From the NCBI GenBank assembly GCA_964551375.1, contig CAZKBG010000001.1, forward strand, positions 240,001 through 272,000: a stretch of 32,000 nt of DNA, read 5' to 3'. Under the pieces are notes generated by a model, which was given only the letters and a program-made list of their open reading frames with translations, ran no database searches and was not told the DNA's origin. Made by a program: the position numbers and the translations under genes. Source of the stretch: an uncultured archaeon. GTDB lineage: Archaea > Iainarchaeota > Iainarchaeia > Iainarchaeales > JAAZKV01. Of the stretch, positions 431 through 25,359 are shown piece after piece (within the stretch, counting starts at the first letter, position 1; each line of letters opens with the position of its first letter).

Positions 431-1123
431 TTATCTAAGCGCATCATCAATTTTCTGCTTTAAAGTTGCGTAAGGAACCGCTCCAACTACTAAAACCCCT
501 TCGCCGGTAGTCTTTCCAACAACAAAAGAAGGAGTTCCGTTAATTCCAATCCTTGCGCCCTCATTAGCATCAGATATTATTGCTGAATCAAACTTTCCTG
601 ACAAAAGGCAAGTGTTGAATGAATTAACATCAACGCCGATTTCTCCCGCCCAAGAGGATACATTAGCAAGGGTCACTGATTGAACCATATTATATGTATT
701 GCCTGCAAGCTCCTGCTGTTTGTTATACATTTTATCATGCATTTCAAAATATTTTCCCTGCTCTCCAGCGCATCTTCCCGCATAAGCGTACATTCCCGCA
801 AGAGGGTGCCCGTTAAGAGGCAAATCCTTAAAGATAAATTTTACTTTTCCAGTGTTAACATAATCAGAAACAAGCTGGGCCTTTGATTCAATGAACCATT
901 TTCTGCAAAACGGGCACTGAAAATCAGAATATTCTATAACCGTAACCGGCGCAGAATCAGAGCCAAGGCTTCCTGCCCCTGCCGATGAAAGAGTTCCTAA
1001 ATTAACTTTTGTTTCCTGCTGTGTACAGCCAAGCAATACTACCAGCGCAAAGATAAGCGCACTGAAAATAATTAATTTCCCCGAGTTCTTCAAGCAAAAC
1101 ACCCACAGTTTATTGGAACACAA
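431..1123 (-). CDS. secreted/anchored DsbA-like thiol:disulfide oxidoreductase (thioredoxin fold)
   Basis: CPFC redox motif in YSDFQCPFCRKW. The N-terminal hydrophobic signal/anchor ends in LLGC (lipobox-like). The ORF-track start is TTG at 1123; the in-frame TTG at 1093 (MKNSGKLIIF...) gives a more typical signal peptide. Confidence 0.75.
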   Translation of the reverse strand: MCSNKLWVFCLKNSGKLIIFSALIFALVVLLGCTQQETKVNLGTLSSAGAGSLGSDSAPVTVIEYSDFQCPFCRKWFIESKAQLVSDYVNTGKVKFIFKDLPLNGHPLAGMYAYAGRCAGEQGKYFEMHDKMYNKQQELAGNTYNMVQSVTLANVSSWAGEIGVDVNSFNTCLLSGKFDSAIISDANEGARIGINGTPSFVVGKTTGEGVLVVGAVPYATLKQKIDDALR

Positions 1124-1640: not shown

Positions 1641-2321
1641 ATGCGAGTAAAGCCAAAGGCAAAAGCTCTAAAGAAAGCGCCAATTCCTACGCGCTCAAAA
1701 AAAGCGGCAATTGAAAGAAGATTTCTAAAAAACCCGTTAAAAACAAAATCACTAATAGTAACAGCATGGTTTAGAAAATACTTACGAGAAAACAAAGGCC
1801 TATTAACTTCATTCTTAAAAGCAAGAAGAGAACTTCACAAAGGAAGAGCAGTGGCATTTCAAGAAGGAAAAGTAACTCTTGCATTTCATGATGACCCAAA
1901 CGCAAGCGCATCAGCTCATTTATATAAATTAACGCTTGGAAAAGATATTTTCTTTATTAAAGAACAAAGAGAAGGAAAAAACAGGCACAAATTCAAAGCG
2001 CATCTTGATGTCGCTGACAAACAAATAATGGCGCTTGAGAAAGCAAGAAAAGTTTTGAAAGGAAACCCAGATTTTGAAGTAGCAAACTATCACATGGGGT
2101 GGACAAGCGGGCACAACTCATTTTTAGTAACCGAACACTACCATGGAGTGCTTGTTGAACACATGCGCCCAAGCCAAGGCTGGATAGACCACAAATTCAA
2201 ACCAACAAGAATGAAATTACTTGAAGCAGGACTTGAAGACTTTGGCGTCCACAACTTAATTTACGACGCAGAAAGAAAAAAATGCATAATAATAGATTTG
2301 AGACTATCTGGATACTCCTAA
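1641..2321 (+). CDS. basic orphan protein with a putative minimal protein-kinase-like fold
   Basis: 226-aa ORF with ATG start and a Lys/Arg-rich N-terminal tail. C-terminal EDFGVHNLIYDAERKKCIIIDL has an Asp with Asn at +5, followed by a hydrophobic-Asp strand, like the catalytic loop plus DFG-equivalent of RIO/Bud32/Kdo-kinase-type enzymes. Upstream, FFIKE could supply the beta3 Lys and FLVTEHYHG a hinge. The fold call is inference only. Confidence 0.7.
   Translation: MRVKPKAKALKKAPIPTRSKKAAIERRFLKNPLKTKSLIVTAWFRKYLRENKGLLTSFLKARRELHKGRAVAFQEGKVTLAFHDDPNASASAHLYKLTLGKDIFFIKEQREGKNRHKFKAHLDVADKQIMALEKARKVLKGNPDFEVANYHMGWTSGHNSFLVTEHYHGVLVEHMRPSQGWIDHKFKPTRMKLLEAGLEDFGVHNLIYDAERKKCIIIDLRLSGYS
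2226..2305 (+). repeat. left copy of an 80-nt direct repeat (3' end of the 1641..2321 CDS)
   Basis: Identical to 3816..3895 except 2288 (a) versus 3878 (t). The offset is exactly 1590 nt. Confidence 0.95.
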
Positions 2322-2392
2322 TAATTTAGTAAATCACTTAATCGTTTTAGATATTCTTAAATATAATAAAATCTTAGTAATAGTTGACTTTT

Positions 2393-3214
2393 ATGGCAAT
2401 ATTAAGCTCATTTGACAAAATTGCGCTTGTCGGAATAATAATATGTTTAGCATTAATATTTGCTTCAGCAGCAGGACTTGATTTAGCAAAACCATACCAC
2501 CAATTTACTCAAATGGTATTCGGCACAGAAGCCGTAACGGATTCTAATGGAGTACTTTTGGCAAAATACGGCGGAACAGGAGTAGCAAAATGCGGAACAG
2601 GAGATGTGCTTGTTTGGAACAATACACAAAATAAATGGATATGCACTAACATGTTCGGACCGGGGAGCCCGCCAACAGCAACACTAACCGCAACACCAAC
2701 AACAGTAAATTATGGAGGAGCATCAAGCATAATTTGGAGCTCAACAAACGCAGACACTTGCGTTGTTAGAAAAAACGGAGCAGCATTCTCAACATTACTT
2801 TCAAGCACAGGAACAACTTCAGGCGCGCTTACTGCAAACCCAACAAACTTTGATATAAACTGCACAAACATAAACGGCTCAAACGCGCTAATCACTGTAC
2901 CAATATCAGTAACTGACAATTACCCAGCGCCCCCAGCAGGCGTTTTAGTTTACGACAGCGGATGGCAAGCATGGAACCCAGTATCAATATCACTAAACCA
3001 CACAAGCGTTCCAGTTGCAAACCAAAACGTAGTAGCATACGTTGGATGGGCTCAAAGCCCAGTGCCAGCACACGCAGCAACAAACTTCACAAGCTACGGC
3101 TCAACAGCAGCATACAGAATAACCGCAAAAGCAACAACTTACCTAACGATCACAAGAAGCGGACAAGCAGGCGAGCCATACTACTACTGGGTAAGGATAT
3201 ATTCGACGGCTTGA
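2393..3214 (+). CDS. secreted/anchored protein with a Thr/Ser-rich Ig-like module
   Basis: ATG at 2393 (the ORF-track start is TTG at 2384). N-terminal hydrophobic segment IALVGIIICLALIFASAAG. Module ATLTATPTTVNYGGASSIIWSSTNADTC...DINCTNINGSNALITVPISV has the beta-sandwich repeat pattern common in surface proteins. Several N-x-S/T sequons. Confidence 0.7.
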   Translation: MAILSSFDKIALVGIIICLALIFASAAGLDLAKPYHQFTQMVFGTEAVTDSNGVLLAKYGGTGVAKCGTGDVLVWNNTQNKWICTNMFGPGSPPTATLTATPTTVNYGGASSIIWSSTNADTCVVRKNGAAFSTLLSSTGTTSGALTANPTNFDINCTNINGSNALITVPISVTDNYPAPPAGVLVYDSGWQAWNPVSISLNHTSVPVANQNVVAYVGWAQSPVPAHAATNFTSYGSTAAYRITAKATTYLTITRSGQAGEPYYYWVRIYSTA

Positions 3215-3254
3215 AAAAAGAAATAATTAAATACTAAAAACATCCCATCACATT

Positions 3255-3566
3255 ATGAACGAGAATGAAATTAGATCGCTTTACTTAGCCAGTGCTGTCC
3301 CACTTTTACTTGTCGGACTTTTCATAATATTTATAGTATTATTTGGAAATTATGACCGCACAATTACCACAACAGGTTTTATTAACGGCTTAATTATTTT
3401 TTTAATCGCAATAGTCCCATCGATATACTTTTGTGCGTTTAAATTTTATGAATATAACAAGAAGGTTCATTCGCTTAAATTGACAAAAGTAGGAATTTTG
3501 ATTAATGCAGCATATTATGTTTTTATTTTTATATTTATTTTTCTGATGATTATTAGCATAATTTAG
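3255..3566 (+). CDS. small polytopic membrane protein, unknown function
   Basis: 103-aa ORF with ATG start and three long hydrophobic segments. Very AT-rich, no recognisable motif. Confidence 0.55.
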   Translation: MNENEIRSLYLASAVPLLLVGLFIIFIVLFGNYDRTITTTGFINGLIIFLIAIVPSIYFCAFKFYEYNKKVHSLKLTKVGILINAAYYVFIFIFIFLMIISII

Positions 3567-3623
3567 AAATAGCGAATATGAACACTTTTGTTATACCCAA
3601 ACCGTGTTAGCGATTGGCAATGA

Positions 3624-3905
3624 AATACCTCAACCAACCAACTTCATACAACTTTTAGGCTGGAAAAAAGAGACACGCTCACAATATTCCCAAGCAGCGA
3701 AGAAAAACAAGTTCTAATTGTAAAAAGAGTAATAAGCGTTGAAAATCAACCTCAACGAGAACTAAGCCCAAAACAAAAAGCCCACGCTGAAAAACTAAAA
3801 CAAGCATTCTCAACTGCAGGACTTGAAGACTTTGGCGTCCACAACTTAATTTACGACGCAGAAAGAAAAAAATGCATTATAATAGATTTGAGACTCACAA
3901 GCTAA
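3624..3905 (+). pseudogene. startless 5'-truncated paralog (remnant) of the 1641..2321 kinase-like gene
   Basis: Open frame of 93 codons from the TGA at 3621-3623 to TAA at 3903-3905, with no in-frame ATG/GTG/TTG before its last few codons. It translates to ...EEKQVLIVKRVISVENQPQRELSPKQKAHAEKLKQAFSTAGLEDFGVHNLIYDAERKKCIIIDLRLTS. The last 27 aa match the parent, and the VLIVKR strand sits at the same 40-residue spacing from the EDFGVHN loop as FLVTEH does in the parent. Confidence 0.65.
3816..3895 (+). repeat. right copy of the 80-nt direct repeat
   Basis: 79/80 identity to 2226..2305, read directly from the sequence. Confidence 0.95.
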
Positions 3906-7869: not shown

Positions 7870-8070
7870 TTACCTTGGCTTTTTTCTTCTGCTTCTTGCC
7901 CATCTCATCTTTAATTCATCCGCAAGAGCAACTCTCTGCGATTGAGTAAGCTGAGACGAAATCTTAACGCCTTTACTCCAAACGCTTGGAAGTCTTCTGC
8001 CGCTTTCAAGCTTTAAAATCAGTTTTCTATCAATCTTTCTCTTGGCTTTGGTTGACATTCGCCTTGGCAT
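7870..8070 (-). CDS. small basic protein, possibly L39e-like
   Basis: ATG at 8070 is preceded by AAGGAGTG (SD); the ORF-track GTG at 8079 lies inside that SD. KRKIDRKLILKLESGRRLPSVW resembles the L39e core (R-I-K-R-x-L-A-K-K-x-K-x-N-R-P-I-P-x-W) and RWARSRRK resembles its RHWRRTKL tail, but about 15 extra residues lie between them. Confidence 0.4.
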   Translation of the reverse strand: MPRRMSTKAKRKIDRKLILKLESGRRLPSVWSKGVKISSQLTQSQRVALADELKMRWARSRRKKPR

Positions 8071-8185
8071 TAAAAACACTCCTTAACGCTAAAATAAACT
8101 CTATTGATTAATATTAACCTTTTGTTTTCAAGAAGTTTAACCCAAATAGCGAAAGCATTTAATAGTAGAGAAACCTACTTTTTGC

Positions 8186-9121
8186 ATGGCAAAAAAAAAA
8201 CAAGCAAAAGTGTCAAGAACAAGAGTTGCTAGAAGAGAAGTAAAGCAGGCAAGAAATGACTTTATGCTTGAAGTTAATCCAAATAATCTTCCAATTGAGA
8301 AGAGACTTTGGGCATTTTTAGAACTTGCAAGAATTGGAAACTGCATAATGGCAGGAATTGCAATATTAATCGGATTTTTTGTAGCAAGCGGATATGATAT
8401 TGGGCTTGCAACAATCGCAGCACTTTCAGGAATGCTTGTATGCGCAGCAGGACAGGCAATTAATGATTACTTTGACGCAAAAATTGACGCTAAAACTTCA
8501 AAGCATAGGCCGATTCCTTCCGGAAGAGTAACTCTTCATGAAGCAATGCTATTTTCAATTGGATTATTTATTTTAGGAATCGCGCTTGCATCCCAAATCA
8601 ATGTTGTCGCATTCTTTATTGCGTTAATAATGTCAATACTCCTTGCAGCATACCCTCTTTACATGAATAATGTGAAATTTATTGGAAATGCTCTTGTGGC
8701 GCTTGGAACAGCAATTACTTTTGTTTACGGAGCAGCAGCAGTATCAGGAAATATCCCGCCGCTTGTAATCGCGCTGGCTTCAACAGCATTCTTTGCCAAT
8801 ATTGCAAGAGAAATAACAAAGGATATTGAAGATGTGAATAAAGACAAAGGCGCAAAGAACACTCTTCCAATTATTATTGGAGAGTTTAAAGCAAAAGGAT
8901 TTGTTTTCATTTACTATTACCTTGCAGTTGCAGTAAGTATTTGGGTGTTCTTTGAGTACAGCCTGTCATTTGGGTATTTATTATTCGCAGCGCTTGGCTC
9001 AATTACATTCATTAATGCATCATGGCTGTTGTTCAAAAAACACGCTAAGAAAAGCCAGAGGATGTCAAAACTGGGGATGATTGCAAGCCTGTTAGCATTC
9101 ATCCTTGCGGGATTAAGGTAA
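8186..9121 (+). CDS. UbiA-family prenyltransferase, likely digeranylgeranylglyceryl phosphate (DGGGP) synthase
   Basis: Polytopic membrane protein with NDYFDAKIDAKTSKHRPIPSGR (NxxxDxxxD plus RPxxSG) and a second Asp-rich region (KDIEDVNKD). In archaea this family makes the membrane lipid core. A TATA-like gcatttaatag lies about 25 nt upstream of the ATG, suggesting a leaderless start. The N-terminus carries a basic 25-aa extension. Confidence 0.8.
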   Translation: MAKKKQAKVSRTRVARREVKQARNDFMLEVNPNNLPIEKRLWAFLELARIGNCIMAGIAILIGFFVASGYDIGLATIAALSGMLVCAAGQAINDYFDAKIDAKTSKHRPIPSGRVTLHEAMLFSIGLFILGIALASQINVVAFFIALIMSILLAAYPLYMNNVKFIGNALVALGTAITFVYGAAAVSGNIPPLVIALASTAFFANIAREITKDIEDVNKDKGAKNTLPIIIGEFKAKGFVFIYYYLAVAVSIWVFFEYSLSFGYLLFAALGSITFINASWLLFKKHAKKSQRMSKLGMIASLLAFILAGLR

Positions 9122-9212
9122 CATCCCTTAAAGCAGACATGTTTTTTGACTAATTTTTTGACAAAGGAAAAGATTTAACTGCACAACAAGCATATTTTAC
9201 ATCAGAATTAAT

Positions 9213-9842
9213 ATGATTAAGGCAATTTTCTTTGATTTTGCTGGGGTTCTTTCAAAAGAATACAGCATAGTAAGCGGATACTTTGTGCCTTACTATAAAC
9301 AACTTACTGAAGAAGTTCTAAGGGAAAGATATAGAAAAGGAAGAGATGGGGAATTAACATTTGAAGAAATTATAGAAGGCATTCCAGAAAGAAAAGTGTT
9401 TAATTATTTAGAAAAAGCGAAGCTTAACAAAGGCGCAACAGAAGCTCTTCAGGAATTATCAAGGCATTACAAGCTTTACATTGCCTCAAACCACCTCCCT
9501 GGTTTTTTTGAAACAGAAATAGAACACTTAGGAATCAAAAATTATTTTACAGATTTTTATATCAGCTATAGGCTCAAAATGCACAAGCCGTTAAGAGAAT
9601 TTTTTGAAAAAATGATTTCTGAATCAAAAATCAATCCAAAAGAAGCTATTTTTGTGGATGATGCATTGACAAACCTTGAAACCGCAAAAGCAATTGGAAT
9701 GAAAACTATTTGGTTCAACAATAAAAACAACGACAAAAGGAATGCAATTGAATACAAGCCGGATTATGAAGTAACAAATTTTAGAAAACTGCTTGAAGTA
9801 ATTGAAAGCATTGAGTTAAAATCTGAAAATCAAACGCTTTAA
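9213..9842 (+). CDS. HAD-superfamily hydrolase
   Basis: Motif I FFDFAGVL has the nucleophile Asp, but Ala sits at the +2 position where phosphatases have Asp, as in dehalogenase-like members. Also SNH (motif II-like), K in HKP, and FVDDALTNLETAKAIGMKTIWF (motif IV). Confidence 0.7.
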   Translation: MIKAIFFDFAGVLSKEYSIVSGYFVPYYKQLTEEVLRERYRKGRDGELTFEEIIEGIPERKVFNYLEKAKLNKGATEALQELSRHYKLYIASNHLPGFFETEIEHLGIKNYFTDFYISYRLKMHKPLREFFEKMISESKINPKEAIFVDDALTNLETAKAIGMKTIWFNNKNNDKRNAIEYKPDYEVTNFRKLLEVIESIELKSENQTL

Positions 9843-9886
9843 ATTAAAATAAAAAAGTTTTAAACCCCATAAATTATAAAGGTTAA

Positions 9887-10918
9887 TCAAAACCACTGAC
9901 TTAGGCTTCTTTGCTTTTCAATCTCTTCTCTTTTCTTAATAAAAGAATTAATTGTTGATTCAACCCTGTCTTTTGAAAAATCATGCTTCTCTACCAAAAA
10001 CTCTATCACTTTTTCTTTATTCGGCTCCCTTGCTTCAAGATCCTTAAGCGCAACATCCACGCTCACCGGGTTAAGAAACACCTGCGCGATTTCTTTGTAA
10101 TCAAAATCAGGCTCGTATTTTGTTTTTGCAATAATTTCCTCAAAGCTATTTGCTTCCTTTACTAATTTTAACGCGGTTTTTGGCCCAATTCTTGGAAACT
10201 TTTCATTAAAATCAGTTCCGACAAGCATTCCGAGCCAGATTAATTTTTCTCTTGACACTCCAAGCTGTTTTTCAACGCTTTCAAGCTCAATATGCTGGGG
10301 CTTTACTTCAACGTAAAAATTCTTTCCAGCAACTTTTCTTTTCCCTGTGATTCCAACATTTCTAAACAAATGATTTGCCCCAAAAAGCAGACAATCAAAG
10401 TCCTGGCTAACTACTCCAAACAACTGCCCCTTTGAAACCATTACACTTCCCTGAGCTTCCCCTTCCTGCGGAGCTTCAATTACAGGAATTCCCATGTGAA
10501 TTAAAAGTTCTTTTGCTTCGCTAATCATCTGAGGAGTCATTTTTAATGCGCGTGAGCCGAATTTTTGCGCGTCTTCTAAATTTCCTTCCTGCAAAGCATC
10601 TTTTGATTTTTTTTCAGCATCAGTTCTAACTTCTCTTCTCTTTCTAAGTGTTTCAGCTTTTAATTTTGAAGGAGCGCCGTCAAAAACATAAACAGGTTTT
10701 ACTCCAAGCTCAATTAAATTAAGAGTTCGGTAAAATAATCCTGTTAAATGAGAAGTAACATTCCCATGTGAATCAGCTAACGGCAAACCGTCAGGTCCGC
10801 GAATACTTGCAAGAAATTGATAAAGCATGTTGTAAGAATCAATTCCAACTTTTTTTCCCGACAAATAATCAAGCGCAATCTCTTCTTTCTCCACAAGCTC
10901 TGAAATATTTACTCCCAT
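9887..10918 (-). CDS. fen1: flap endonuclease FEN1
   Basis: MGVNISELV... N-terminus, XPG-N/XPG-I pattern (VYVFDG, SQDFDCLLFG), helix-3-turn-helix GVSREKLIWLGMLVGTDFN and C-terminal PIP box QRSLSQWF. The ORF-track GTG at 11020 adds 34 hydrophobic residues that FEN1 proteins lack, so I take the ATG at 10918. Confidence 0.9.
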   Translation of the reverse strand: MGVNISELVEKEEIALDYLSGKKVGIDSYNMLYQFLASIRGPDGLPLADSHGNVTSHLTGLFYRTLNLIELGVKPVYVFDGAPSKLKAETLRKRREVRTDAEKKSKDALQEGNLEDAQKFGSRALKMTPQMISEAKELLIHMGIPVIEAPQEGEAQGSVMVSKGQLFGVVSQDFDCLLFGANHLFRNVGITGKRKVAGKNFYVEVKPQHIELESVEKQLGVSREKLIWLGMLVGTDFNEKFPRIGPKTALKLVKEANSFEEIIAKTKYEPDFDYKEIAQVFLNPVSVDVALKDLEAREPNKEKVIEFLVEKHDFSKDRVESTINSFIKKREEIEKQRSLSQWF

Positions 10919-21170: not shown

Positions 21171-21278
21171 TGTATTACCCCCGCTAGCGACAAACTAACA
21201 CATACACTAAACTAGTACTTAAATTAGATTCTAAGGTGTGCAAATGTGTCTAAAATATTCACATTTAATTATTGTTAT

Positions 21279-21485
21279 TCACTGCTTTTTCAACGCCAGT
21301 CTGATATCTTCATCAGTAACTGTTTTTCTTCCAGCGTGCTTTGAAAATATTGCTGCCTGCTGTGCAACCTTCATTCCTTCTTCTTCCAAAAAATTTGAAA
21401 GCTCTTTAGCCGCGCTCTCGCTGACTCTAATTCCAGTAGATTTTCTAATAATTCTGTCAATTGCCGCTAATGGTAACTCGCTCAC
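21279..21485 (-). CDS. archaeal histone (HMf-type histone fold)
   Basis: 68 aa: LPLAAIDRIIRK...RVSESAAKEL...AQQAAIFSKHAGRKTVTDEDIRLALK is the canonical archaeal histone-fold pattern. GTG start is preceded by AGGTGGTG-TAA. Confidence 0.9.
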   Translation of the reverse strand: MSELPLAAIDRIIRKSTGIRVSESAAKELSNFLEEEGMKVAQQAAIFSKHAGRKTVTDEDIRLALKKQ

Positions 21486-21515
21486 TTACACCACCTGACA
21501 AAAGAAAAAAGAAAA

Positions 21516-21530
21516 AAGGTTATAAACCTT
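21516..21530 (-). promoter_or_regulatory. palindromic TATA element upstream of the histone gene
   Basis: aaggttataaacctt reads AAGGTTTATAACCTT on the minus strand. Its centre lies about 38 nt upstream of the GTG at 21485, compatible with a ~13-nt leader carrying the SD. Confidence 0.4.
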
Positions 21531-21631
21531 GACAAAAAAACTCATTTTAACTGAAAAACATGCCCCAGAAATCAATAAATATGCGAAAACACTTAAAACA
21601 AATGAATTAATTAGATAAAAAAGGCGACAAA

Positions 21632-24600
21632 ATGCAAAAAATTAATCAAGCAATAATTATCCTGATTTGTGTTGCACTTATCCCAACTTTCATTAATGCC
21701 GCGACATATTACCCATCAGTAACTCTTTCATGCAAAGCTGCGGTCGGACAAATTGGAAATTCAAATCCAGGGTGCACAGTTGACGGCCCGCCAAACTTTT
21801 CTTCAATAAGCGCGGGCGGAGGATGCCCATACCAAGGAGCAACTGCATTCAATGGAGGAATTATGGCAAGATTTGGAGGAAGCAACTGCACAGGAAGCGC
21901 AACTTTCACTTGCAATAATGCAGCATGCGCACTTGATGACGCATATAACTACCCTTCAACATCGCTGTCCTGCACTACAGGCGCATGCGGAGTCGGAGGA
22001 TGCCCTCAATGTTATCTTGATAACGTAGCAGGATACTGGCTTGATGGAACAGTTTGTTACGGAGACTGGGGAAGCGGAGGATATTTATATTACTCTTGCA
22101 GCGGACAATATGCGACAGCAAGAGCAAATAGAAAATGCATCAGCGCAGGATGCGCAACTGCAAAACCAGGGGCTTGCGGAACAGCAAACGCAAAAACATA
22201 CGGATTTACTGCAACAGGATTTGGCGCCGACACTATTTGTTCAATAGGAACATCAACCCCATCAACAGTTTCATTCCCAGCAGCAGGATCAACTGCATCA
22301 TGGACTTGCCGAACAGCAACTGGAAGCGCAAATTGCAGCGCAACACATAGCGCAGCGGCTAATTGCAGCGCAGGCGGCGTGACTGTTTTGCACGGCGCTT
22401 CAAGAACATTTTATCAAACATCAACAGTTGCGTGTGGAGCTTCATGCGCATCAGTAGCGCAAACAAGGACCTGCAATAACGGCACTCTTTCAGGAACATA
22501 TACTAATGCAACATGCACAGAGCCCCCAGCAATTAATGGAAATTGGACTTCGTGGAGCGCATGTAATTCCGGAATAAAAACACGAACCTGCACTAACCCT
22601 TCGCCGTCATGCGGAGGAGCAGGATGCAGCGGACTTTCAAGCGACTCATGCACAAATGCTTCATGCGGAACTAACGCAAGAGCACACACTGCAGTTGAAA
22701 GCACATTCACAGGAACATTCTGCGCAAGCGGAAATGCCCCAGCAACAACCCCCTCCTTTCCAGCATCAGGGGCAAGCACAACATGGACTTGCACTGGAAT
22801 TAATGGAGGAACTAATTCCACATGCACCGCAACAAGAGCCGCTGGAGGAGTTCCAACAGCGACATGCGCTGATTTATCAATATCAACAGGATTTAGATTA
22901 AGCACTCAAGTAGGTTGTTTTTATGTTGATGCAAATATTATTAACAACTCAGGAAAAAACTTTGCAGGAAGTTCAAATGCAAGGTTAATTGTAAGAAATC
23001 CAATAACAGCAACAAATGCATATGTATTCAATCAATCTCCAGAAGCAGGGGACAACTATGGATGGTGGCTATATGACCAATTTAGCTGTATTGGAGCAAC
23101 TGGAAATCCATGGGTTTCCACAACATATCCTTATGCACATTGCATAGCATATGATGTCGCAAATTGGCCTGCATTAATTGCAAGCAACCAACTAATTGGA
23201 AGCGATAATTCGCCGTATATGAAAATGAAGACAACATTTACAGGATGGCTTACAGAAAGCGGCAAAAGATATCCCTATATTGATTTTACTTTGCCCGCAC
23301 TTACAAACGGACAAAAGGCAAGTGTTCCAACAATGCAGTGGCTTTGTCATAGATTAAGAAACCCGCTTGCAGCAGATATGACTTATGAACTAAACTGCAC
23401 ACCAACAGCGGTAAATAATCCCCCATTACTTTTAGACTTTAACCTTGCGACAACTGTTAATTCAGCCGTTAAGTCAGAACTTCTTACAAATTATGTTACT
23501 GACGAATCGCCTTCAACTTTAACTTACCAAATCACTTCCGAAAACACTGCGCAAGTGGACTGCGCAATCAGCGACAAAAATATTCTTTACACACCTGCGG
23601 CAAATTACGCTGGAAACGCAACATGTGTAATTAGAGTTACTGATGATGGAGGACTCACAAGCACTGCGACTGCAAGAATAACTGTTTCAGGAGAAATTGC
23701 AAACTGCATTGGGGCTAATTGCATTCAAGGAAAAACTGGAGTATGCGGAAGAACATCAGGAGGAGCAATACCTTTAGTGAATATAACGCTCCCCCCATAT
23801 GATGCAAACACAATCGCATACTGGATAATGAGAGCAAATAATCGCGCAGGCCCATATATACTCTTAGGAGCATACGGCTACCAGCCAATTACAGTAAATG
23901 ACTCTTATGACTTAAATGCGGGACTTGTTTATTATTACAACTTTGCAAAGCACAGCAGATTCGGCGACAACAATGTTGTAAGAACAGAAGCTTACTGCGC
24001 GCAGGCATACTGTTCAGTGATGCAATGCGGAGGAAATATTGACGCAAACTGGAGCGCAATTGCTGGATCAAACAAATACTTTGTTTATGTTTCTACTGAC
24101 AACAATATTTTCACAAAAGTAACTGGAATGAGTTGCGATGTAAGTTTCCCTTCAGGAATGGGTGTAGTAACAACAGAAACCCAGTTTAATTCAGTATGCT
24201 CAACAAATTTCACAATCCCTAGACTTAATCCAAACACTTTGTACTACTTCAAAGTTGAGGGAAGGAGCAGATACTACGGCGGAGAAAGTTCACAAGGATT
24301 TACCGGAACAGCAACTGCAGTGTCCTCTCAGCTATGCACAACAACGCCAGCCCCTCCCTGCACTGCGCCAATAAATGGAATTTGCGGAAATGCATCCACT
24401 GCTTACGCAGTAGGAACTACAACTTGGCCAGTGGGAGCAGTATTCTGCGCTGATGGAAATGCAATTCCTTCCTCGCCAACATTCCCAATTGCAGGAACCC
24501 CAACAATATGGGACTGCAACGGACTAAATGGAGGAAATAGTGTAACATGCAATGCAACAGTAGGAGCATGCTCGCCTGACACAAACACTGATGCTTATCA

Positions 24601-25279
24601 CTGCGCAAGAGCTAATGCTGAATGTGGAAATATCACTGTTCAAAACGGAAATTGCGGAAATAAAACAGTGAATTGCGGACCTGATACTAATGCATGCAAT
24701 ACAATGTACGGCACATGCAATACAGCAGGAGTAAAAACATGCAGCGCAAATAAATACTCGCTTACTTGCGCAACAGTTGACCCAAGAATTTCATACTGCG
24801 CAACAAGAGTTTGCGGAAGCGATTTGTGCGGCGGAACTTGCGGAAGCGGATGCGGAGCAGGACTTACATGCAACGCAAGCGGACAATGCATACCCGCTCC
24901 AGAAAACTCAATCACTTCACTTTCAGCAATTTATGACGGAAACTTAAACCTTGAATCACAGTGCGCATTTGAACAGCCAAATGCAAGAATGATAATTAAT
25001 TACCTTGACACAAATGAAGAAATCGCAAACTACAGCCCTTATTTGTGCGGAGCAACATCACAAACACAAATAAAAAATATCCCAAACCTTCGCTCAAACA
25101 CAAATCTTGTGATAACACTCACAATTCCTGCGCCATGCGATGTGTGCATAAAAACAATTTATCTTCCAATTAAAGCAGTGAATCAAAAAACCGAATCAAT
25201 TCCTGACAATAATTTAATTGCAGTAATTTTAGTACTCGCAGCCGCAGTAATTCTAATCTCAGCAAAGCGAAGAAATTAA
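21632..25279 (+). CDS. giant cysteine-rich mosaic surface protein (signal peptide, multiple disulfide-rich and beta-sandwich modules, C-terminal TM anchor)
   Basis: 1215 aa. N-terminal signal MQKINQAIIILICVALIPTFINA. C-terminal LIAVILVLAAAVILISAKRRN (TM plus basic tail). Many Cys and many N-x-S/T sequons. Modules are described in the findings. The long antisense ORFs inside it are artefacts of the compositional bias. Confidence 0.9.
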   Translation: MQKINQAIIILICVALIPTFINAATYYPSVTLSCKAAVGQIGNSNPGCTVDGPPNFSSISAGGGCPYQGATAFNGGIMARFGGSNCTGSATFTCNNAACALDDAYNYPSTSLSCTTGACGVGGCPQCYLDNVAGYWLDGTVCYGDWGSGGYLYYSCSGQYATARANRKCISAGCATAKPGACGTANAKTYGFTATGFGADTICSIGTSTPSTVSFPAAGSTASWTCRTATGSANCSATHSAAANCSAGGVTVLHGASRTFYQTSTVACGASCASVAQTRTCNNGTLSGTYTNATCTEPPAINGNWTSWSACNSGIKTRTCTNPSPSCGGAGCSGLSSDSCTNASCGTNARAHTAVESTFTGTFCASGNAPATTPSFPASGASTTWTCTGINGGTNSTCTATRAAGGVPTATCADLSISTGFRLSTQVGCFYVDANIINNSGKNFAGSSNARLIVRNPITATNAYVFNQSPEAGDNYGWWLYDQFSCIGATGNPWVSTTYPYAHCIAYDVANWPALIASNQLIGSDNSPYMKMKTTFTGWLTESGKRYPYIDFTLPALTNGQKASVPTMQWLCHRLRNPLAADMTYELNCTPTAVNNPPLLLDFNLATTVNSAVKSELLTNYVTDESPSTLTYQITSENTAQVDCAISDKNILYTPAANYAGNATCVIRVTDDGGLTSTATARITVSGEIANCIGANCIQGKTGVCGRTSGGAIPLVNITLPPYDANTIAYWIMRANNRAGPYILLGAYGYQPITVNDSYDLNAGLVYYYNFAKHSRFGDNNVVRTEAYCAQAYCSVMQCGGNIDANWSAIAGSNKYFVYVSTDNNIFTKVTGMSCDVSFPSGMGVVTTETQFNSVCSTNFTIPRLNPNTLYYFKVEGRSRYYGGESSQGFTGTATAVSSQLCTTTPAPPCTAPINGICGNASTAYAVGTTTWPVGAVFCADGNAIPSSPTFPIAGTPTIWDCNGLNGGNSVTCNATVGACSPDTNTDAYHCARANAECGNITVQNGNCGNKTVNCGPDTNACNTMYGTCNTAGVKTCSANKYSLTCATVDPRISYCATRVCGSDLCGGTCGSGCGAGLTCNASGQCIPAPENSITSLSAIYDGNLNLESQCAFEQPNARMIINYLDTNEEIANYSPYLCGATSQTQIKNIPNLRSNTNLVITLTIPAPCDVCIKTIYLPIKAVNQKTESIPDNNLIAVILVLAAAVILISAKRRN

Positions 25280-25329
25280 CTTCTTAAAACCTTTCGCCAA
25301 ATAACTGGACGGCAAACCTCTTCGAGAGG

Positions 25330-25337
25330 ATTTAAAA
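25330..25337 (+). promoter_or_regulatory. TATA box of the hef promoter (leaderless start)
   Basis: atttaaaa is centred about 26 nt upstream of the ATG at 25360, and no SD lies between them. Confidence 0.45.
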
Positions 25338-25359
25338 CCCCTCGAAACACAACTCTTGC

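Follow-up and report, generated by a model that had tools for sequence, protein, structure and literature searches.

The thrombospondin type-1 repeat (TSR) is a textbook adhesion module of eukaryotes, found in thrombospondins, ADAMTS proteases, complement and the invasion proteins of apicomplexans. In the description of Tan et al. (2002; PMC2173040), the repeat consists of a rippled A strand carrying the motif WxxWxxW and of regular B and C strands; its layers of Trp and Arg are capped by two disulfides, and a third links the loop between strands A and B (AB loop) to the C-terminus. The third disulfide is missing in the C-terminal TSRs of complement components C6-C9 (PMC2173040). The TSRs of the animal proteins UNC5 and thrombospondin-1 are C-mannosylated and O-fucosylated (PMC6954052, PMC9198472). 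Such modifications typify eukaryotic TSRs but do not define the family. Apart from the fold itself, canonical copies in uncultured prokaryotes, tagged by Pfam, are already known, and a literature search returned no paper describing TSRs in bacteria of the candidate phyla radiation (CPR) or in DPANN archaea (Diapherotrites, Parvarchaeota, Aenigmarchaeota, Nanoarchaeota and Nanohaloarchaeota), the near miss being bacterial thrombospondin type-3 repeats. The present analysis concerns 32,000 nucleotides from an uncultured archaeon of the Iainarchaeota (contig CAZKBG010000001.1, positions 240,001 to 272,000; hereafter the window), in which a first-pass annotation had read a compact TSR-like module within a surface protein of 1215 residues, here called the window protein (Table 1). 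Residues 301-345 of this protein are a genuine, divergent and shortened TSR.

Layout of the module

The translation of the module, INGNWTSWSACNSGIKTRTCTNPSPSCGGAGCSGLSSDSCTNASC, is identical to the one first reported, and all elements of the layout described with it were found in the sequence: W305-x-x-W308, K316-x-R318-x-C320, N-P-S-P, GG-x-x-C332, C-x-G and C340/C345. By alignment, the A-strand motif W305-T-S-W308 equals the second and third Trp of UNC5D, the first Trp being missing. Strand B corresponds to I315-KTRTC-320, in which K316-T-R318 aligns with the R-x-R of animal repeats; the BC loop reads TNPSPSC327GG, and strand C extends from about L335 to S339. Cysteines lie at positions 311, 320, 327, 332 and 340, and C345 is at the same time the initial Cys of the four-Cys module that follows.

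The absence of the C-S-x-x-C-G pair, also claimed by the first-pass annotation, was borne out, as the alignment with a canonical repeat of a prokaryotic relative (L002) contains one gap, of 4 residues, exactly at this place (C-SVEC-GG in the canonical repeat, C-N----SG in the module). Through this deletion the AB-loop cysteine, that is, the second Cys of CSxxCG, is lost, and the AB loop that is left comprises 8 residues and is free of Cys. It follows that the third disulfide, the "bottom" one in classical repeats, cannot form, and the O-fucose site (C-x-x-S/T-C-x-x-G) is lost together with the AB-loop Cys. Of the six cysteines and three disulfides by which TSRs are commonly defined, the module retains the four Cys needed for two capping disulfides, which by homology would pair as C320-C332 (top) and C311-C340 (bottom). 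Loss of the third disulfide is no bar to membership of the family, since the accepted TSRs of C6-C9 are likewise without it (PMC2173040). The BC loop contains an additional cysteine, C327, which also occurs in some SCO-spondin-like TSRs of sponges and a snail (P-x-P-x-C-G-G). Co-occurrence of cysteines was considered as a route to the partner of C327 and found uninformative, because the pattern used to search the metagenomes itself required that Cys and so biased the table.

Homology to thrombospondin type-1 repeats

Over its full length the module is 61% identical to the canonical prokaryotic TSR L002:177-332 (E 1e-18, with the single gap of 4 residues), which places it in the TSR family. Several such relatives exceed the cut-off of 21.6 bits on the Pfam profile TSP_1 (PF00090), namely L006:8982-9134 (40.6 bits), L002:177-335 (39.6 bits) and L004 (25.7 bits), and TSP_1 matches were obtained for 8 of 14 and 64 of 135 related modules in two sets. 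A profile built from the alignment of the 14 modules (A1), to whose other members the window copy is 35-64% identical, retrieved thrombospondin-1 TSRs from the PDB sequences at E 2.8e-18, and all 35 of its matches there were TSR proteins. When a 107-residue piece around the module was searched against all PDB sequences with phmmer (E<=10), 19 of the 20 matches were TSR-containing proteins, headed by UNC5B (1.2e-6), UNC5D (2.9e-6) and C8alpha (1e-3) and followed by ADAMTS13, thrombospondin-1, C6 and BAI1. The TSRs of UNC5B, UNC5D and thrombospondin-1 (PDB 6OOL, 7ZA1, 1LSL, 7YYK) are the best sequence matches of the module among solved structures, and differ from it in having 4+2 more residues in the AB region. 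When the 1.09-Mb genome was translated in six frames, a regular expression of the layout had a single match, which fell at the site of the module. On these sequence comparisons, the homology of the module family to eukaryotic TSRs is secure.

The module by itself does not reach the TSP_1 cut-off. Scanned alone as a 51-residue query, it spans the profile end to end (positions 2-49 of 49) at 14.6 bits (E 0.038); it scores 13.4 bits in a TSP_1 search of the genome, and no TSP_1 match was found in the Pfam scan of the whole window protein or of the 107-residue piece. The significant match to TSP_1 that the first-pass annotation had put forward as a test is therefore not obtained for the module alone, but is obtained by way of its relatives (25.7-40.6 bits).

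It could be argued from this score that a linker rich in Cys, Ser, Thr and Gly mimics the spacing of a TSR by chance or convergence, without common ancestry, as the first-pass annotation had allowed. The composition of the window protein is indeed skewed, with 75 Cys, 146 Thr and 118 Gly, and the bias terms that HMMER gave for the alignments to PDB sequences are high. However, a profile of 134 related modules, with the window sequence left out, scored the module at 53.6 bits, whereas the best of 2000 composition-preserving shuffles reached 11.5 bits. Moreover, the 61% identity to Pfam-positive TSRs runs over the full length and is interrupted by one clean indel, and the family profile matches TSR proteins only. 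Chance resemblance is effectively refuted by these results, and common ancestry with TSRs is preferred to an explanation that must now be regarded as extremely improbable.

Predicted fold

AlphaFold2, run on the 51-residue query with an alignment of 135 sequences (A3), predicted a structure with a mean predicted local distance difference test score (pLDDT) of 80.7, in which query residues 20-27 (IKTRTCTN) and 40-44 form strands, giving the hairpin expected of B and C, and the N-terminal segment is irregular. This predicted fold is compatible with that of a TSR, which is elongated, three-stranded and antiparallel, with a rippled A strand and regular B and C strands. A Foldseek search of PDB structures placed TSR-type chains at ranks 1-8, but with weak scores (E >=0.018, template modelling score <=0.48): C7 came first (E 0.018, probability 1.00), followed by C8alpha, C6 and again C8alpha at ranks 2-4, properdin at ranks 5-7 and pleiotrophin at rank 8, with the TSR of semaphorin-5A and MIC2 at lower ranks.

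The C-terminal TSRs of C6, C7, C8alpha/beta and C9 (Group-1, no third disulfide; PMC2173040), which supply the top Foldseek matches and are also among the phmmer matches, resemble the module in the WxxW of the A strand, the Arg of strand B, the Pro/Gly-rich BC loop, the two capping Cys pairs and the want of a disulfide from AB loop to C-terminus. Unlike these complement repeats, the module has an AB loop of 8 residues, two rather than three Trp, K-x-R in place of R-x-R and the additional Cys in the BC loop. It differs from them further in its host, as this is an archaeon in which neither a C-mannosyl- nor an O-fucosyltransferase was detected.

Relatives and distribution

Prokaryotic relatives of the module were found in a Candidatus Shapirobacteria metagenome-assembled genome (MAG) with four repeats (L003), in a Nanoarchaeota MAG (L004), in a MAG with canonical TSRs whose label reads "uncultured Methanosarcinales archaeon" (L002), and on contigs that also carry genes for PilM, KhpA and S16 (L005) or for PNPase, S15, TsaD and ComM (L006/L007). 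The MAG of L002 (G215) has only about 0.9 Mb, and its Methanosarcinales label or the binning of the contig may be wrong. Further relatives are MBU1130471.1 (P0129), from Patescibacteria, and P0050, a protein of prepilin type, and the motif RTCTNPSP[SA]CGGAxC is common to the window module and these relatives. One of the proteins concerned, P0024 (the L006 gene at 8001-10013), already has precomputed Pfam TSP_1 matches.

The canonical prokaryotic TSRs (L002:177-332, P0024 and L004) are 55-65% identical to the module, contain the identical string TRTCTNPSPSCGGAGCSG and, like it, reside in presumably secreted mosaic surface proteins, some being fused to pilin-type leaders. They differ in having kept the C-S-x-x-C-G of the AB loop, which the window copy and those of its genus have lost; the former exceed the TSP_1 cut-off and the latter fall below it. 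The TSR protein of L004 (gene 2002-3888) has a pilin-like hydrophobic N-terminus and a long Gly-rich tract at its end, and P0050, annotated as prepilin-type, has 4 clear and 5 degenerate TSR-like repeats; from these two architectures it appears that TSRs also occur as cargo of pilin-type proteins. The Cys-free AB loop of 8 residues is not peculiar to the window, as it recurs in 7 metagenomic modules, in P0075, P0050 and P0127, and in L010 and L012 from the same genus. Modules of this subtype either reach 14.6-20.3 bits on TSP_1 or do not match it at all, and are consequently missed by curated annotation.

In its own genome the module is the only match to the family (65.9 bits, E cut-off 1). 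Among the Iainarchaeota, matches occur in 6 of 215 genomes (E 1e-3, own genome included), all of one family: the genome under study, four others of its genus and one of a sister genus. At E 1e-5, matches were found in 5 of 401 genomes of the CPR phylum of L003 and in 5 of 401 genomes of the Nanoarchaeota, each count including the genome used as the center of the search. The module is therefore no isolated curiosity; its family is sporadic in CPR bacteria and in other DPANN archaea. A phylogeny of prokaryotic TSR-like modules had been proposed as a further check, and the relatives needed for it were collected from CPR and DPANN organisms, but the resulting tree (59 modules, 64 columns) is largely a comb, with 33 of 56 inner branches open. 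In this tree, iainarchaeal modules stand in at least three places, mixed among those from CPR bacteria and metagenomes, and the eukaryotic modules do not form one clade.

Genomic context

The gene for the window protein is carried by a 946-kb contig of a 93%-complete genome. It is situated between genes for a peroxiredoxin and Hef (window 21237-25359). The nearest named relatives of the adjoining hef product are from Candidatus Iainarchaeum and Diapherotrites (69-73% identity), so that the assignment of the host to the archaea, and to DPANN, holds. Gene content upstream of hef varies widely among genomes of the genus, and in none of 14 such genomes (L093-L106) is there an ortholog of the surface-protein gene in this position, between the genes for peroxide detoxification and hef, which marks it as a variable, shuffled surface protein. 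As the slot is not conserved, the context yields no functional partner. In one genome (G130), the genes for peroxiredoxin and Hef are about 0.8 kb apart, and a surface-protein gene of this kind is absent from the interval.

From 21700 to 22900 the G+C content (GC) rises to 0.48-0.50, against a background of about 0.38. This rise is due entirely to codon position 2 (0.78), that is, to codons for Cys, Ser, Thr, Ala, Gly and Pro. At the third codon position (GC3), the part that codes for the module and the two modules preceding it (the cassette) has a value of 0.31, compared with 0.33-0.37 in neighboring genes; hence composition gives no hint of a recent import, the codon usage is native, and the region is not a foreign island.

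These values bear on the possibility that the archaeon gained its TSR recently and directly from a eukaryote, for instance an animal or protist host. The multi-TSR, SCO-spondin-like proteins of metazoans, whose repeats are each 40-57% identical to the module and of which those of sponges and a snail share its extra BC-loop Cys, would be in keeping with such a gain. However, the GC3 of the cassette equals that of housekeeping neighbors, the closest modules (55-65% identity) sit on contigs of CPR and DPANN type, and related modules together with the same C-terminal anchor domain occur in four other congeneric species and in one species of the sister genus. Enzymes of the POFUT2 or DPY19 type also appear to be lacking, as no homolog of O-FucT (PF10250) or Dpy19 (PF10034) was found in the 93%-complete genome. 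A recent eukaryotic import is thus very unlikely, and the module is better seen as long resident in the lineage and as a member of a rare pool of TSRs that CPR bacteria and DPANN archaea share patchily. The question of origin then concerns this whole pool and not the single gene.

Elsewhere in the window, a DsbA-like protein of the thioredoxin fold is encoded (Table 1); it is possibly a lipoprotein and a plausible oxidase for Cys-rich exported proteins. Its presence makes the formation of disulfides outside the cytoplasm plausible. VKOR (PF07884) was not found in the genome.

Architecture of the window protein

The window protein is a mosaic in which Big_9 is the sole Pfam domain above cut-off. 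It begins with a signal-like segment, MQKINQAIIILICVALIPTFINA, and by its sequence looks exported and membrane-anchored, so that an extracellular location may be assumed; the C-terminal tail would be a membrane anchor or a possible sorting signal. The coordinates of its parts are collected in Table 1.

Table 1. Features of the window discussed in the text (positions are those of the window; percentages are identities).
Feature	Position	Strand	Residues	Basis or remark
Gene for mosaic Cys-rich surface protein	21632..25279	+	1215 aa	ORF (open reading frame) list, composition
Probable Sec signal peptide	21632..21700	+		MQK + hydrophobic core + INA|A; inspection of translation
Four-Cys module, copy 1	22172..22351	+	181-240	Sequence
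"HG" module, directly N-terminal of TSR	22364..22516	+	245-295	Pattern C-x-HG-x-Y-x-C-x-RTC-x-NG-x-LSG-x-C
Shortened TSR module	22532..22666	+	301-345	Translation given in text
Four-Cys module, copy 2, abutting TSR	22664..22837	+	345-402	Sequence
Big_9 / cadherin-like Ig domain	23414..23683	+	595-684	Pfam PF17963, 35.2 bits (cut-off 23.6)
Four-Cys module, copy 3	24377..24565	+	916-978	Sequence
Lineage-specific juxtamembrane domain	24905..25195	+	1092-1188	tblastn: 52% L012, 45% L010, 30% L014
C-terminal tail	25196..25276	+		SIPDNN + about 20 hydrophobic residues + KRRN; sequence
DsbA-like thioredoxin-fold protein	431-1123	-	230 aa	Thioredoxin_4, 112.7 bits; CPFC site; LLGC lipobox-like N-terminus

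The cassette of four-Cys module, HG module and short TSR recurs in L010 and L012 of the same genus, where it stands directly before the juxtamembrane domain and the VPDN-transmembrane tail that these proteins share with the window protein; in the window protein itself, about 740 residues of other modules intervene between the TSR and the juxtamembrane domain. In L014, a TSR is joined to the same juxtamembrane domain and tail and the ectodomain is different. The tail, [SV][IV]PD[NS]x followed by about 20 hydrophobic residues and a basic end, is present in three open reading frames of more than 1000 residues in the genome, the two others lying at offsets -546529 and -106712, and also in L010, L011, L012 and L014; judged by its sequence, this recurring tail has the look of a C-terminal anchor, or of a sorting signal, that has been conserved.

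The HG module, of about 51 residues, forms arrays of 4-14 copies in other proteins (L008, L018 and P0003-P0010), including one from Candidatus Kaiserbacteria (P0006), and its alignment with arrays of proteins from uncultured organisms (A4) shows a mean column identity of 62%. It has no match in the Pfam scan and no relative in the PDB sequence search. A derivation of the HG module from a TSR was considered and set aside, as the profile-profile match covered only 10 columns (QTRTCtN) at 66% probability and provides no evidence of homology. A joint alignment of HG and TSR (A2, a two-module model) was likewise dropped because MAFFT had placed the second half of HG onto the TSR. The four-Cys pattern, C-G...F-C...F-P..G...W-C..G-G...C, present in three copies here, is found in many copies in a hypothetical protein (P0005) of Minisyncoccus "archaeophilus". 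Minisyncoccus is a cultured CPR bacterium that parasitizes archaea, and the occurrence of the pattern in P0005 makes the four-Cys module a second module common to CPR bacteria and DPANN archaea.

Discussion

Taken together, the data allow a reading under which the window holds a native TSR, shortened in its AB loop, that belongs to a pool shared by CPR bacteria and DPANN archaea and forms part of an archaeal attachment protein. This reading is considered probable. The existence of a compact variant, as proposed by the first-pass annotation, is supported by the 61% identity to a canonical TSR, by the match of the family profile at E 2.8e-18 and by the compatible predicted fold. Several observations nevertheless weigh against the reading. 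Taken alone, the module stays below the TSP_1 cut-off (14.6 against 21.6 bits, E 0.038), and its copies in the same genus have no Pfam match at E<=1. The material for a ladder is limited to two Trp, one Arg and one Lys; further, with two basic residues and one acidic residue, a positively charged "recognition" groove like that of thrombospondin-1 is not evident. Finally, with 33 of its 56 inner branches open, the tree permits no statement on origin or direction, and it demonstrates vertical descent no more than it does exchange with CPR bacteria.

The model that follows from the favored reading proposes that the module folds as a TSR capped by two disulfides, within a surface protein that would be secreted, anchored to the membrane at its C-terminus and furnished with other disulfide-rich modules and an Ig-like domain. 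The module would then act as a small, rigid, disulfide-stapled extracellular bead, and such a bead may add to the reach of a fast-evolving, strain-variable protein for cell attachment and give it a surface for binding. The host, a DPANN archaeon, is presumed to be episymbiotic or otherwise host-dependent. A role of the module in an attachment protein is the most likely one.

Acidic glycans abound in the cell envelopes of potential hosts. An alternate scenario may assign to the module the recognition of sulfated or acidic polysaccharides through a positive Trp/Arg face, in the manner of thrombospondin-1 or TRAP, as eukaryotic TSRs are known to bind glycosaminoglycans by their W/R front face (PMC2173040). 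However, K316 and R318 are the only basic residues of the module and one residue is acidic, and most of its relatives, too, keep a single Arg (QTRTC). In addition, the module contains two N-glycosylation sequons, one of them at the first Trp (N304-W-T), and glycans at these sites could mask the Trp/Arg face. Because of the two basic residues and the two sequons, one of which lies on the Trp motif, heparin-type binding is less likely, and recognition of glycans in this manner is on the whole unlikely.

A broader proposal would hold that AB-loop-less TSRs with five to six Cys constitute an unrecognized prokaryotic subfamily below the Pfam threshold, and that, with the HG and four-Cys modules, they belong to a toolkit of small, disulfide-rich beads which CPR bacteria and DPANN archaea trade across the domain boundary and use in building fast-evolving proteins for attachment to hosts. 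This is a tentative suggestion and a rather unlikely one. If it were true, the TSR fold could have diversified, or even originated, in a prokaryotic pool and not in animals.

The single module of the window is a modest instance of a wider pattern among CPR bacteria and DPANN archaea. It nonetheless represents a recognizable TSR, native to an archaeal surface protein, that has lost one disulfide and the sites glycosylated in eukaryotes. For annotation, a subtype missed by curated thresholds is now identified; for the evolution of the family, a concrete set of prokaryotic TSRs becomes available with which the origin of the fold and the direction of its transfer can be tested; and for the biology of DPANN archaea, the window protein is marked as a putative candidate for contact with the host.

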